A stretch of DNA of 64,000 nt from Eubacteriales bacterium (GTDB lineage: Bacteria; Bacillota; Clostridia; Oscillospirales; CAG-272), in NCBI GenBank assembly GCA_045602385.1, contig JAZSBL010000030.1, forward strand, positions 2,902-66,901, written 5' to 3'. Positions 56,325 through 60,663 of this stretch are shown here, in pieces (positions within the stretch are counted from its first letter, which is position 1; each line of letters starts with the position of its first letter). The position numbers and the translations under genes are program-made. The notes under the pieces were generated by a model, which worked only from the letters and a program-made list of their open reading frames with translations, was not told where the DNA came from and searched no databases.

Positions 56325-56720
56325 TTACGGGGAAATGATAAGAATCGAGTCCTCGGCGTTACTGCCATCCTTAGCTATGATTCTTACCTTTAGCATTCCG
56401 GGGGTGGTAAACGTTACTACGCCGTACTCGTCTACGCTTGCCACGTGCGACTGCTCATAAGCGAAGTCTACTTCTGTATTTGATGCGTCATCGGGATAAA
56501 CGTGATAATCTAACTTTATACGTCTCTCTCCCTTTTCATTTGGCGTTACAATGATGTAATCGCCATGCGTATCGCTGTATTTTTGTCCCTCGTTGGTTAT
56601 CTCTACACGCTCAACGGGGATAACCTCCTCAAACACCTTGAACTGCAATCCGAAGAAGCTTACAAGTGCTATTGCCGCTATATATATAAGGGCTATTAAA
56701 ATTACTACTGATTTTTTCAT
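56325..56720 (-). CDS. membrane-anchored small Ig-like (Big_2-like) domain protein
   Basis: 131 aa with an N-terminal TM helix followed by a single beta-rich domain (VASVDEYGVVTFTTPGMLKVRIIAKDGS). Confidence 0.6.
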   Translation of the reverse strand: MKKSVVILIALIYIAAIALVSFFGLQFKVFEEVIPVERVEITNEGQKYSDTHGDYIIVTPNEKGERRIKLDYHVYPDDASNTEVDFAYEQSHVASVDEYGVVTFTTPGMLKVRIIAKDGSNAEDSILIISP

Positions 56721-56722
56721 AA

Positions 56723-58381
56723 TTATTTCTCCTTATAATAAAGCTTAACCATCGAGAAGAACATCCATGTTCTGTATACCAGCACCGCAAGGGCAACCGA
56801 TACCAGCTTGACATAGACATATCCGGATTTTTCGAATAAGAGGAAGAATACCACTCCCGCCGTAAGGAAAGAGACAAGGAACGCGGAAACAGTGGATTTC
56901 ATTTCGTTGGCGTTAGAAACCGTGCTTCCAACGCTCGCGTAAAGCTGTGTCTGGGGGTTCATAAGGTCAAGCTGTGCCGAATAGAACATGTGCGCGATGA
57001 AGATAAATGCCACTCCGGCAATCATGTGCGCAATGTCAGCCGCGGGAAGCGGAAGCGTAAGCACAAGCACAGGTGTCGTTGCAAGTATTGCGCAAAGTCC
57101 AAACGTTGTATTGGGCAAGAGCTTTGCAACTATCGGCAAGTTGTAATTCGAGGGAAGCGTCTTTATAAGGTAGCTGCTCTGTCCGTCTCTTGAGAAAATA
57201 CTTGAGATAGAACAGTTTGCGTTCAATGCGACCAAAAGCATGATAAGCAAATTGAAGGCAATTATCATGTGGTCTCCCATCTCTCTTGTCTTCATAGCAA
57301 GGAATATCTTGTTAAGAAGGAAGATGAGCATCGGGATAGATATAAGAATTCCCACGTTCGCAAATATAGCGTTTGTATTTTTGACCGTAACAAGGAAATT
57401 GGTGTAAACAGAGGATACGACCTTGTTCTTGACTCTGTTTTTCTTGGGCTTTACAGGCTTCTTGAGGTACTCAAAGGGCGTACTCGCCATCTTGTAAAAC
57501 AGGGGGCGAACGACCAGGAGACCTACACCGAGAATTCCAAGCGTGGAGCCTGCCAGAATAAGAAATCTGAAGAAGGTTCTGTCAAGCGGGAAGTAAATTG
57601 CAAGATCCTTTACCTCACCGAGAAGCATACGGGTAAAGTCGTAAAGATAGCTGAACGTCTGCGCGTATGCGGTAAGGAAGTCCTGAATTTCCCAATATAT
57701 TGAGCTCCATGCCGCAACAAGGTCAATGTTTGCGGGGATCAAGGAGATGGCGAAGAAGAGCGCAGCCGCCGCGCCGACAACGGTCGCAGCCAACGTCGTG
57801 ATCTGAAGCCATTTATGCTGTCTGAAAAAGTTTGCTATCCACATTGCGGGAATCGAGAGGATCGCGCCGATCGCAACCGTAAAGAGCGATACCCAGATCA
57901 TGCAGAAGAGCATCCATACGTACGCGCCTGCGGAATATCCGTGGGTGATAAAGTACGCAATGAACATAGGAACGAGGAAAGAGAGATTTCTCTTTATCTC
58001 GAAAATAAAGAATATAACAAGCTTTGAAAGGTACACCTGCAAGGGGGTACACGGAAGCGTGAGGAGAACCGCGTTATCTCTTGCATAGTACATTGATTTG
58101 GTAAGACCTACCGTACAGGATATTACCGAAAGGCCAAGCATTACCGAAAATACAAGTGAAATTACCGTATCGGGAATCGGGAGGCCCTGGAACGAAAACA
58201 GGCCAAGCGTTTTCGATACAAGCAAGAATGCAATACAAAGACCAGTTACAGCCGCCAATTTTACTACTGCGCCGACTACCGACAGCAGTACAGAGAAAAA
58301 TTTTGAATTTTCTGCCTTAAGGCGCTTGAAGTTCATCTGCTCCTTGAGCTGCATCATTACAAGGATGAACAGACTCTTCAT
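56723..58381 (-). CDS. polytopic ABC-2-like permease
   Basis: 552 aa with at least 12 hydrophobic segments. It overlaps the upstream ATPase gene by 4 nt (ATGA) and ends 2 nt before the next gene's start. Confidence 0.6.
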   Translation of the reverse strand: MKSLFILVMMQLKEQMNFKRLKAENSKFFSVLLSVVGAVVKLAAVTGLCIAFLLVSKTLGLFSFQGLPIPDTVISLVFSVMLGLSVISCTVGLTKSMYYARDNAVLLTLPCTPLQVYLSKLVIFFIFEIKRNLSFLVPMFIAYFITHGYSAGAYVWMLFCMIWVSLFTVAIGAILSIPAMWIANFFRQHKWLQITTLAATVVGAAAALFFAISLIPANIDLVAAWSSIYWEIQDFLTAYAQTFSYLYDFTRMLLGEVKDLAIYFPLDRTFFRFLILAGSTLGILGVGLLVVRPLFYKMASTPFEYLKKPVKPKKNRVKNKVVSSVYTNFLVTVKNTNAIFANVGILISIPMLIFLLNKIFLAMKTREMGDHMIIAFNLLIMLLVALNANCSISSIFSRDGQSSYLIKTLPSNYNLPIVAKLLPNTTFGLCAILATTPVLVLTLPLPAADIAHMIAGVAFIFIAHMFYSAQLDLMNPQTQLYASVGSTVSNANEMKSTVSAFLVSFLTAGVVFFLLFEKSGYVYVKLVSVALAVLVYRTWMFFSMVKLYYKEK

Positions 58382-60663
58382 GAATTAGCCTCCTCAGCCT
58401 CATTTTCGGGCTCTTCGTAAGGAACGTGCTCGTCGTTTCCGTCGTAAATAATGTCAAGATAGAACTTTTCAAGCTCTATTCCCTTCTCGTTAAGCTCTTT
58501 CATGGAAGTGAACGCGCGGAGCTGACCCTTCTTGATAATTGCGATCTTGTCACAAAGCTTTTCAACAACGTCAATAATGTGGGAGCTGAAGAATACGATA
58601 TTACCCTTTGCGGCATGCTCCTTCATGCACTCCTTAACCTCGTGAATACTGGTCGGGTCAAGACCGGTAAGCGGCTCGTCAAGGATCCATACCTTAGGAT
58701 TGTGAACGAGAGCAGACATAATGGTTATCTTCTGCTTCATACCGTGGGAGTAGGTCTTCATCTGGTTGTCAAATGCACCGGTAAGCTGGAAGAGGTCTAC
58801 GTACTTTTCAATGAATGCATCGCGGTCCTCGCGGCTTACCTCAAAGAGGTCTGCTATGTAGTTTATGTATTCTCTACCGGTGAGGTTCTCGTAAAGCGCG
58901 TAATGGTCGGGGACGAACGCGGTGTTCATCTTTGCCGCAACCGACTGCTTCTCTACGTCAAAGCCGCAGATCTCGATATTACCGGATGTTATGGTCTGAA
59001 TTCCAACCATGCTCTTGATAATAGTAGACTTACCCGCGCCGTTGGGGCCCAGGAAGCCGAATATTTCGCCGCCCTTTACTTCAAAGGAAACGTTATTTAC
59101 AGAATAGTGCTTGTTGCTTCCGTATCTCTTGGAGAAGTTACGGAGAACGAGGCTGGGCTCCTCATTACCGCTTATCGATGCGGTCTCGGGCTTTCCGCCA
59201 AGGTATTTCTTAAGATCTTTCTTCATTCTTCTATAATCCCTTTCTCTCTTAGTTCTGTCTTCGTCTGCATCCAGTGCGTTAAACATCATTCCGTAAAGGA
59301 ACCATGCCAGCACGGACAACGCCGCGTATACCGCAAAGAATACTACCTGATATACGGGGTAGAAGGTCAGCTCATAGCCGTTGACGGTCACCGTAGCGGT
59401 TAAATCGCGGGTGTTCTCCGCCCAAAGACCAAGCTTTGATACGATAAAATCACTGTTTGTGTAGAAGAAGTCGCATTCTTCGCCGTTTCTTGCGGTAAGA
59501 TATGCGTTGGTGAAAAGCATCGAGCCGTAATAAACGGCAAGCGTTATCATCGCGTATACCCACTGTATGAATTTGGGGCGCTTGAATACCTTAAGCGAAA
59601 TTATAAGCAGCGGCATTCCAAATGCTGCGTAGTGGTTTACCCAGTAGGAAACACGCTCTGTTCCGATTGCATTCCAGTCTACCATCGCGTGGGGGAATAT
59701 CATCGCCATCAACGCGCCGACAACTCCGATAAACAAGCTGAAGTTAAACAATCTCTTCATTTTGAATATCAGACAAAGAGGAATAAGGAACATCGCCGTG
59801 TTACAAAGGTGAAGCGGCCAGTTCTTAAGCTCCGCGAACTGCCAAAGCTCCCATCTGCCTATGTATACCCAAAGGAAAGCCAGGGACATATATATAAGGA
59901 TCATTCTGTTCTTTTCAACAGGATTCCTCTTAAGCAGCAGATATCCAATCAAGGGAAGCGCTATTGCCATATAGAGCATAAATCTGTGCTCGGGCGTAAC
60001 GTCGTAAAGCTTGATCGCAGGGTCAATTCCAACGAAGAAAGCCTGAAGCACGTAGCAAGGCATGATCGCCAGAAGAGCCATGATAAGGCCGTAGAAAAAG
60101 TTTCCAAAATCCTTAAGCTTTACGGGGACCTCAAATCTCTTCTCGGAGATTATGTTGCCCGCAATAATACCAAGTCCCACGGCAATCTCCGCAGCCATTA
60201 TCCAGAGTCTTGCGGATGAAAGCGCGTAAGCCTCTGTGCCGACCGTTCCGATCGCATATGTCTCGAAGCAGACGAGAAGCACAACGAAGAGAGGCAAGCA
60301 GAACAGGTTCACAATTCTGTGCAGCGTTTTGTACTTAAAGAATGCGCTGAGCACCGTAAGCACGATCGCCGCATAAGAGAACCACAAAAGCAATACAGCA
60401 AGAGCGGTCTGCGCCTCATTGAGCTCGCCCGCACTGTTAAAGGGCGACAGAGTATCGTAAAGTCCCTTTAAATTATAAATTGCGGGCTTCAGGTAGAGGT
60501 ATCTGAAAAAGGATACCAAAAACAGAGCCGCCGCAAGGGGCTTTTGCACGTACGCAATATTAACCTTAAATCGCTTTAGGATGAACCAAAGTCCTACCAA
60601 CAATAATGCGGCACAAACAGAGCCGGCCGCAAACGTCAAATTAATCACACCCAATAACCTCAC
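58378..60663 (-). CDS. fusion protein: N-terminal polytopic YwaF/TMEM164-like membrane domain plus C-terminal ABC ATPase
   Basis: Residues ~1-462 are hydrophobic and include WPLHLC. A charged linker follows, then an NBD with Walker A [9 protein letters not shown], signature YSHGMKQK and Walker B [11 protein letters not shown]. The true start may be GTG 60648 (GAGG RBS). Confidence 0.8.
   Translation of the reverse strand: [761 protein letters not shown]

Follow-up and report, generated by a model that had tools for sequence, protein, structure and literature searches.

The human protein TMEM164 is a membrane acyltransferase for which the acyl-Cys123 thioester was captured by cryogenic electron microscopy (PMC12830759). 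Another branch of the ATGY superfamily contains LhaT (YpjA, DUF1405) of Bacillus subtilis, a lipoprotein heptaprenylglyceryl N-acetyltransferase. At the outer face of the membrane, this enzyme modifies the N-terminal cysteine of diacyl-lipoproteins with an acyl group that it takes from an ester linkage in a lipid donor; the donor Ac-HepG is made by PcrB/YvoF, and the donor flippase is unidentified (PMC12345273). Two systems of Escherichia coli combine lipid-acting enzymes with ATP-binding cassette (ABC) proteins. In the Aat system of enteric strains (AatPABCD, cargo CexE/Aap), AatD lipidates the single cognate surface protein of an ABC-containing export system (PMC7943197), and in YbbAP-TesA membrane lipids are presented by an ABC transporter to its partner, a lipid enzyme (PMC12646458). 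Here we describe a four-gene cassette in 64,000 nt of DNA from an assembly labelled Eubacteriales bacterium (GCA_045602385.1, contig JAZSBL010000030.1, positions 2,902 to 66,901; this whole stretch is referred to as the window). In this cassette, a TMEM164-like domain and an ABC ATPase form a single polypeptide, which is encoded together with a permease, a small immunoglobulin (Ig)-like membrane protein and a large lipoprotein. We consider it very probable that the membrane domain belongs to the TMEM164 family, that its catalytic dyad is intact, that the genes form a conserved cassette and that they constitute one operon. In the function that we favour, with a probability of roughly 0.4, the cassette would use ATP to transfer an acyl chain to the lipid anchor of the cognate lipoprotein, or to remodel this anchor, at the outer leaflet.

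According to the open reading frame (ORF) listing of the window, the locus consists of four consecutive ORFs on the minus strand, to which all coordinates refer unless a strand is given. The fusion gene is a 761-amino-acid ORF at 58378..60663 and codes for a membrane module with 13 transmembrane (TM) helices followed by an ABC ATPase (PF14808 + PF00005). It is followed by the gene of a 552-amino-acid polytopic permease (56723..58381), the gene of a 131-amino-acid protein with a Big_2 domain (56325..56720), an intergenic spacer of 156 nt (56169..56324) and the gene of a 1534-amino-acid lipoprotein (51564..56168). This arrangement, including a 4-nt overlap between the fusion and permease genes, is the one reported by the first-pass annotation, which had been made from the letters of the window and its ORFs. 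The fusion gene probably starts at the GTG at 60648, because GAGG is found 9 nt 5' of this codon and none is found before the first GTG, and because the database product has 756 amino acids. Numbering would then shift by -5; residue numbers used throughout are those of the 761-amino-acid ORF. In the database, the fusion is labelled only 'ATP-binding cassette domain-containing protein', and no published description of the fusion or the cassette was found in the open-access literature.

Residues 224-449 of the fusion (59317..59994) were assigned to the TMEM164/YwaF-like acyltransferases of the ATGY superfamily. The match to PF14808 (TMEM164) has a score of 63.4 bits compared to a cutoff of 25 and covers positions 4-212 of the 217 positions of the hidden Markov model (HMM). 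Judged by this profile, the membrane domain is a member of the Pfam TMEM164 family. The same family is matched by all 28 divergent modules described below, in agreement with the earlier view that the membrane part is not an ordinary ABC transmembrane domain (TMD). TIGR02206 ('TMEM164-related integral membrane acyltransferase') is the NCBIfam model that fits the membrane part best; its match extends over residues 227-390 and reaches 44.9 bits. This value is below the cutoff of 75, and by its score the domain is related to the YwaF/TP0381 subfamily and is not a member of it. The likeness to YwaF/TIGR02206/TMEM164 that had been proposed in the first-pass annotation thus holds at the level of PF14808 and not at that of TIGR02206. 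The domain had also been given a length of about 460 residues; it occupies the last ~250 residues of the membrane part, and residues 1-215 form a separate extension.

The predicted acyl-enzyme nucleophile is Cys287 (codon TGT, 59803..59805), located in a P-L-H-L-C motif, and the predicted catalytic histidine is His344 (codon CAC, 59632..59634), located in a [YF]-W-x-N-H motif. The segment WPLHLC is present as initially noted, although it spans residues 282-287 and not 282-286, so that the cysteine in question is Cys287 instead of Cys286. Cys287 starts the helix 286-300 and His344 is part of the helix 335-356, which rank second and fourth among the six final helices. Human TMEM164 is reported to have the same arrangement for its Cys123/His181 dyad (bioRxiv 10.1101/2022.07.06.498872).

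Among 104 fusion homologues, Cys287, His344, His226 and Arg227 are invariant, as are all motifs of the nucleotide-binding domain (NBD). A second set comprises 28 modules that lack an NBD and share 18-44% identity with the query. Pro283 and Cys287 are the only invariant residues there, and conservation of His344 reaches at least 90%; the expected conservation of the cysteine was hence observed in both groups. A nucleophile motif of the form P-[LIFVM]-[HQ]-[LIM]-C occurs in nearly all of the best 150 module representatives. The spacing [YF]340-x3-His344 resembles Y177/H181 of the human protein, and the invariant Gly316 on the intervening helix resembles G155, with residue parallels to E106, G155 and Y177 of human TMEM164 being pattern-based only. 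By analogy with the human enzyme, which the first-pass annotation had correctly described as an acyltransferase with a catalytic cysteine, Cys287 and His344 are expected to represent an intact catalytic dyad with predicted acyl-Cys thioester chemistry.

The AlphaFold2 (AF2) model of the fusion, based on 104 homologues, has a mean predicted local distance difference test score (pLDDT) of 86, with values mostly >90 in the membrane part. It features 13 TM helices, more than the 11-12 hydrophobic segments counted before. In the 104 homologues, all predicted cytoplasmic loops carry a net positive charge and all external loops a net negative charge. These loop charges support an N-out, C-in topology of the modelled module, which agrees with the requirement for a cytoplasmic NBD. 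In the model, combined with the loop charges, TM9 carries Cys287 at its outer end and TM11 carries His344 in its outer half, and the loop charges place the predicted Cys287/His344 site on the outer membrane leaflet. Outer-half or external positions hold 20 of the 27 invariant membrane residues. A single continuous helix (residues 436-488, 59200..59358; DSSP on the AF2 model and loop charge) comprises TM13 and a highly charged stalk in the cytoplasm and connects the enzyme domain with the NBD.

The N-terminal extension (residues 1-215, 60019..60663) consists of six helices in the AF2 model, and distant relatives align with it end to end. It is conserved together with the core, with W94 being invariant and E159 nearly invariant, and matches no family of its own. 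When the extension was compared with the TMEM164 core as a possible duplicate, hhalign yielded a probability of 63% with 28-sequence profiles and of 12% (E 2.5e-3) with 63-sequence profiles, compared to 0.9% for reversed controls. In this alignment, Ser96 and Glu159 fall opposite Cys287 and His344. A relationship of either the extension or the core to the TMD of the permease was rejected, with hhalign probabilities of <=1.4%.

The lipoprotein has the N-terminus MKRKLLILFIAMLAVLVCLAAC, a signal for signal peptidase II (SPII) with lysine or arginine in the n-region, a hydrophobic h-region and a lipobox (LAAC) ending in cysteine. The strict SPII rule is passed by 60 of 63 orthologues, and the lipoboxes of the remaining three end in NAC, THC or TGC. 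Judged by these N-termini, the large protein of the cassette is always a lipoprotein. In the 63 orthologues, the lipidated cysteine is usually separated by 5-10 residues from the start of the first Ig strand. Seven Big_3 repeats were found by Pfam in the window protein, in line with the Ig-repeat lipoprotein described initially, and their number varies among orthologues. According to the coverage profile, the evolutionarily conserved portion is, however, not the Ig repeats but a C-terminal domain of ~600 amino acids, contained in the beta-rich C-terminal ~660 amino acids (51567..53546).

This C-terminal domain was modelled by AF2 with a pLDDT of 90 and a predicted template-modelling score (pTM) of 0.87. 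Comparison with Pfam yielded no family, and comparison of its profile with the PDB resulted in a marginal match (E 0.0035) limited to the first ~80 residues. Foldseek returned nothing at E<=1e-3; it found Ig-like matches to the first ~190 amino acids and a weak similarity to GH49 beta-helix proteins with a TM-score <0.2. The term 'adhesin-like', which had been applied to the large protein, has no specific support, and the C-terminal domain is without a recognisable family or fold.

A scan of species-representative genomes yielded at least 490 candidate stretches, and results given for loci refer to the best 80 of them. The membrane module is present in all 80 loci, the permease is syntenic in 76 and orthologues of the small protein are found in 73. 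The order fusion-permease-small protein-lipoprotein is kept in essentially every sufficiently long locus, at module identities down to 29%. Starting from the other end, the cassette was found beside all three distant homologues of the lipoprotein domain (23-29% identical), in flanks of unrelated housekeeping genes; these cassettes comprise a TMEM164-ABC fusion, a permease of 548-729 amino acids and a small protein of 134-150 amino acids. The linkage between cassette and lipoprotein is reciprocal. In some Bacilli-type metagenome-assembled genomes (MAGs), the lipoprotein gene is located 5' of the fusion gene (L031, L032, L083).

More than 120 clusters with 53-88% identity were found in a homologue search of the fusion, all of them with PF14808 and PF00005 and a length of ~750 amino acids. 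An exhaustive search with the membrane module alone in 1.84 billion representatives yielded only 211 relatives at E<=1e-3. The best 150 of these are 51 complete fusions, 32 complete modules without NBD (~470 amino acids), 58 fragments and 9 unclassified sequences. In the one NBD-less module examined for its neighbourhood (P0121), the next gene codes for a separate ABC ATPase of 295 amino acids and overlaps by 8 nt; the association of module and ATPase exists in both split and fused forms. Carriers are gut MAGs from animals and humans, assigned to Oscillospiraceae/'Ruminococcaceae', Eubacteriales, Christensenellales and some Bacilli/Erysipelotrichales, and the exact locus is contained in sequencing runs of gut metagenomes from goats and cattle. 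A complete cassette with a module of 33% identity was also observed on a contig labelled Alistipes finegoldii (Bacteroidota; L080), for which a binning error is more likely than horizontal transfer.

A sigma-70-type promoter (TTGACT-17 nt-TATAAT, 60720..60748) with 11 of 12 consensus matches is located ~55-70 nt 5' of the fusion gene, and an intrinsic terminator with a 17-pair stem and a T-run (51479..51515) was found by a scan at the end of the lipoprotein gene, where RNA depth drops. The scan revealed no strong terminator between the cassette genes, the best candidates on the minus strand being 5-pair stems. The internal genes have good Shine-Dalgarno sites and overlapping junctions. The ATGA overlap between the fusion and permease genes, together with the ribosome-binding site GAGGAGG of the latter, suggests translational coupling. 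RNA contigs were obtained from three bovine metatranscriptomes that contain the locus (rumen contigs). The contig 58251-58649 bridges the fusion/permease junction and the contig 56030-56472 (run X6) bridges the 156-nt gap. RNA contig depth is 0 at 60736-61400, 5' of the promoter, and above 0 downstream. Because promoter and terminator bracket the four genes and RNA contigs bridge their junctions, we conclude that the genes very probably form one operon, as had been assumed in the first-pass annotation.

In run X6, RNA contigs cover the lipoprotein gene ~4 times as deeply as the transporter genes. The spacer 56169-56324 contains a TTGACA at ~56315-56320 with a poor -10 element. An additional weak internal promoter in the spacer, or differential mRNA stability, is a possible reason for the rise in depth.

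The NBD (residues 504-740, 58444..59154) matches PF00005 with 92.8 bits. It features a Walker A motif GPNGAGKST at 539-547 (K545), a Q-loop, the signature YSHGMKQK at 638-645, a Walker B motif WILDEP at 659-664 with the catalytic E663 and an H-loop SSHII at 693-697 (H695). All motifs are intact and nearly invariant to invariant across homologues, and by these motifs the domain is a catalytically complete ABC ATPase that is predicted to be competent; a charged linker followed by a complete NBD had already been recognised in the 761-amino-acid ORF. The best NCBIfam matches are DrrA, GldA and NodI, of which DrrA scores best with 199 bits compared to a cutoff of 312. The scores for the DrrA, GldA, NodI, LptB, CcmA and PmtA models are each below the respective cutoff. 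EcsA is the top fold match in Foldseek, and TM0544, the NBDs of ABCA proteins (ABCA1/4/7) and LptB are also among the best. From these comparisons, the NBD belongs to a broad DrrA/NodI/LptB/ABCA/EcsA-like class and to no named system. Across the 80 loci, the identity of the NBD (64-93%) is higher than that of the membrane module (29-67%), and long stretches of the NBD are invariant. Conservation of this unusual strength suggests that the NBD also has extensive conserved surfaces for contacts outside the nucleotide site.

Based on hydropathy, the permease has ~12 TM helices in two halves, a basic cytoplasmic linker between the halves and no large external domain. The window protein reaches 22.4 bits for PF16949 (ABC_tran_2), which is below the cutoff of 25.7. 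This family is matched by 20 of 30 orthologues (best E 6e-12), and ABC2_membrane_4 (PF12730) is matched by 3 of 30; one orthologue reaches 27.0 bits. The permease is thus predicted to be ABC-2-like and not MacB/FtsX-like; the same assignment in the first-pass annotation is borne out by most orthologues and falls short of the cutoff for the window protein itself. A permease of type VII (MacB/FtsX/LolCE) was rejected on account of the ~12 TM helices, the lack of a large external domain and the lack of any FtsX or MacB match. In an Erysipelotrichales MAG (L084:4225-6414), the permease has 729 amino acids and a weak match to 12TM_1 (PF09847) in place of PF16949.

The small protein is an N-in single-pass protein. 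Its TM helix (MKKSVVILIALIYIAAIALVSFFGL) precedes a Big_2 domain on the outside (PF02368, 26.1 bits), and this layout corresponds to the small TM-anchored Ig-like protein described before. In its orthologues, the N-terminal TM helix is the most conserved segment.

In the mechanism that we propose, two fusion subunits would provide two NBDs for one pseudo-dimeric permease, and two acyltransferase modules would flank the ABC-2-type core. The TMEM164-like domain would take an acyl chain from an outer-leaflet lipid to form a thioester at Cys287 and would pass it on to the cognate lipoprotein. The acceptor in this protein would most likely be the free alpha-amino group of the diacylglyceryl-Cys, or else another site of the anchor. 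ATP hydrolysis, acting via the stalk helix and the permease, would flip or load the lipid donor, or would position or extract the lipoprotein anchor, and such handling of the anchor would couple modification with surface deployment. The small Big_2 protein may use its conserved TM helix for docking and may retain the lipoprotein by the Ig domain closest to the membrane.

Acylation of the lipoprotein appears to be the most economical reading because of three precedents, namely LhaT/YpjA, the Aat system and YbbAP-TesA. The first-pass annotation had suggested an ATP-coupled lipid or envelope modification, or an export linked to display of the large protein. This inference is strengthened by the near-universal synteny with the lipoprotein and by the predicted outer-leaflet location of the active site. 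It is possible, although we regard it as tentative, that the cassette defines a new class of 'enzyme-transporter', in which an ABC ATPase mechanically drives, or supplies with lipid donor, a polytopic Cys/His acyltransferase of the outer leaflet that places a private lipid modification on a single giant lipoprotein.

Several points weigh against lipoprotein acylation. Human TMEM164 acylates lysophospholipids and not proteins, and the AIG1 branch of the ATGY superfamily is hydrolytic. A conserved counterpart of Glu106 of human TMEM164 was not identified, and of the metal-centre residues only the cysteine, the histidine and the [YF]-x3-H spacing are evident. Neither phmmer with residues 1-490 nor the NBD-free profile of 28 sequences yielded a match among PDB sequences, including 9LW1; in a Foldseek comparison of the whole fusion model with the PDB, the top 50 positions are all filled by NBD matches. 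The score for TIGR02206 remains under its cutoff. The topology is derived from the AF2 model plus the positive-inside rule, and the RNA contigs are strandless, with DNA carry-over being possible. Finally, the linkage to the lipoprotein is compatible with the role of an accessory subunit as well as with that of a substrate.

The sole biochemically defined TMEM164 reaction, a phospholipid-to-lysophospholipid transacylation, would suit an exporter whose ABC-2 core flops or extracts a lipid, a lysolipid or a glycolipid anchor, which the TMEM164-like domain then re- or transacylates in the outer leaflet. Such a system would serve envelope lipid homeostasis, with the Big_2 protein and the lipoprotein as accessories for substrate delivery or as a wall-spanning scaffold. 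Its NBD would be in fitting company, since the closest relatives (ABCA1/4/7, LptB, NodI and DrrA) handle lipids or amphiphiles, and YbbAP-TesA sets a precedent for an ABC transporter that works with a partner lipid enzyme by presenting membrane lipids to it (PMC12646458). We nevertheless consider remodelling of lipids as the principal role unlikely: it leaves unexplained the two-way linkage, in essentially every genome, with an Ig-proximal lipoprotein that has a private domain, and a general homeostasis system would be expected to occur without the lipoprotein at least sometimes.

A predicted outer-leaflet active site that adjoins the place of the anchor would also be appropriate for release ('shaving') of the lipoprotein. 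In this case, the Cys/His domain would be an esterase, or a transacylase to water or lipid, that deacylates the anchor, and the ABC core would extract the protein, which is then freed to the wall or the medium. The ATGY superfamily does include hydrolases (AIG1/ADTRP), and the ~4-fold RNA contig depth of the lipoprotein gene in X6 fits a stoichiometric cargo. Members with a cysteine nucleophile that were characterised so far are, however, acyltransferases, and the strictly kept lipobox argues that anchoring matters; release is accordingly judged to be improbable.

Still somewhat less probable is a mechanotransmission of the FtsEX/MacB type, in which ATP would switch the external Big_2 protein and the C-terminal domain of the lipoprotein, possibly a beta-helix enzyme, and the TMEM164-like module would mainly be a scaffold. 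The obligatory external partners, the long rigid stalk helix between NBD and TM13 and the weak likeness of the C-terminal domain to GH49 beta-helix enzymes, with its low TM-score, can be read in this way. The permease, in contrast, is ABC-2-like with ~12 TM helices and without a large external domain, unlike those of type VII, and an invariant Cys/His dyad within an invariant outer-leaflet cluster is unexpected in a mere scaffold. An ordinary ABC-2 exporter of a drug, peptide or polymer, with a degenerate, non-catalytic TMEM164-like TMD and with the Ig proteins as unrelated neighbours, would agree with the bare database label and the DrrA/NatA-like class of the NBD, but is very improbable given a catalytic dyad kept down to 18% identity, a four-gene order conserved across orders and reciprocally linked, and a separate full permease, so that the module is not needed as a TMD.

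Additional genes were observed in the vicinity of the cassette. A stand-alone paralogue of the TMEM164 family is encoded at 61249-62364 (minus strand) as a 371-amino-acid ORF (PF14808 46 bits) with the motif P-W-Q-F-C and its own terminator at 61227-61203. Divergent to it, at 62379-63206 (plus strand), is a gene for a PlsC-like acyltransferase, with a PF01553 score of 22 bits just under the cutoff and a C-terminal zinc-ribbon-like CxxC...CxxC pattern. The two genes may represent a second lipid-remodelling pair. As cassette members they were rejected: they are found near the cassette in 1 and 2 of the 80 loci, respectively, and a terminator as well as a region without RNA separates them from the operon. 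A second large predicted lipoprotein (48091-50328, plus strand, 745-amino-acid ORF, lipobox LSAVAC) is convergent with the cassette region; it includes a long low-complexity linker rich in Glu and Thr, matches an OB fold weakly and has no convincing family. At 50379-51424 (minus strand), the two parts of a beta-eliminating lyase/threonine-aldolase-like gene (PF01212) lie in different frames as overlapping ORFs, which cover HMM positions 17-120 and 138-281. This split gene is a frameshifted pseudogene or an assembly error.

All parts of the cassette are derived from known superfamilies. A fused polytopic acyltransferase-ATPase that is accompanied by a permease, by an Ig adaptor and by a lipoprotein of its own appears to be an undescribed combination, and it is a real possibility that the cassette represents a new functional class. 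It is abundant in gut and rumen Firmicutes. Because it joins a TMEM164-type enzyme physically with an ATPase and links this enzyme genetically with a single lipoprotein, the system can be tested directly and offers a defined candidate substrate. The ~600-amino-acid C-terminal domain of the lipoprotein is noteworthy in itself as a confidently modelled domain without known relative.

If acylation of the lipoprotein is the function, it would be the first for the bacterial YwaF/TMEM164 branch and would define, for monoderm Clostridia of the gut, a substrate-dedicated pathway of lipoprotein acylation and deployment that differs from Lnt, Lit, LnsAB and LhaT. It would show how cytoplasmic energy is used for acyl transfer at the outer face, a problem left open for LhaT, and would add a polytopic enzyme fused to an NBD as a new architecture of the ABC superfamily. 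N-terminal modification of Firmicute lipoproteins is carried out by a growing set of unrelated enzymes. The acylation state of lipoproteins governs recognition by Toll-like receptor 2 (TLR2), and large lipoproteins of gut commensals could therefore matter to the host.

Compared to described systems, the module shares its sequence family with human TMEM164 (PF14808; PDB 9LW1), a coenzyme A-independent phospholipid:lysophospholipid transacylase in which the cysteine nucleophile likewise starts one TM helix and the histidine follows two helices later. G155, which is needed in the human enzyme, has its likely counterpart in the invariant Gly316 on the intervening helix. Differences from human TMEM164 are six additional helices at the N-terminus of the bacterial module, its fused or operonic ABC ATPase and its nucleophile motif P-L-H-L-C-N, compared to N-P-C-H. 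The acyl acceptor of the cassette is probably not a lyso-ether-phospholipid. With the YwaF/TP0381 proteins (TIGR02206), the module has in common a nucleophile segment of the P-x-[HQ]-x-C type. YwaF proteins are stand-alone and have ~230 amino acids, whereas the cassette module represents a separate, larger subfamily of ~470 amino acids. No assigned function of YwaF and no link to ABC proteins was found in the open-access literature.

The closest functional model for the proposed activity is LhaT, which is also an ATGY membrane enzyme acting at the outer face in a Firmicute. In contrast to the cassette enzyme, LhaT belongs to another branch, is a stand-alone protein with 6 TM helices, acts on all lipoproteins and works without an ATPase. 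None of the cassette proteins has a Pfam or NCBIfam match to the families of LhaT (DUF1405), Lnt (CN hydrolase), Lit or LnsAB, and the likeness to LhaT, Lnt and Aat is proposed to be functional only. The Aat system resembles the cassette in that a dedicated acyltransferase, one cognate surface protein and an ABC export system are encoded together. However, Aat is a Gram-negative composite of MacAB/TolC-like and Lol-like parts, AatD is an Lnt-type CN-hydrolase that is not fused to an ATPase, and the cargo is glycine-acylated and has no lipobox, unlike the cassette lipoprotein.

In YbbAP-TesA and RasP-EcsA (PDB 9a6w), an ABC ATPase is physically coupled to a lipid- or membrane-acting enzyme, as is proposed for the cassette. 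EcsA, the best structural match of the cassette NBD, was modelled in complex with the membrane protease RasP. The differences are that YbbAP is of type VII with a soluble periplasmic hydrolase, that EcsAB-RasP contains an intramembrane protease, and that neither enzyme is fused to an NBD or belongs to the ATGY superfamily. In peptidase-containing ABC transporters (PCATs), a C39 cysteine protease domain is fused to an ABC exporter and couples cargo processing to ATP-driven handling. The cassette shares with PCATs that a Cys/His enzyme domain for cargo processing is hard-wired to an ABC polypeptide. The PCAT enzyme is soluble, cytoplasmic and proteolytic and is part of a type IV exporter, whereas the cassette enzyme is polytopic, faces outward, is predicted to be an acyltransferase and is accompanied by a separate ABC-2-like permease.

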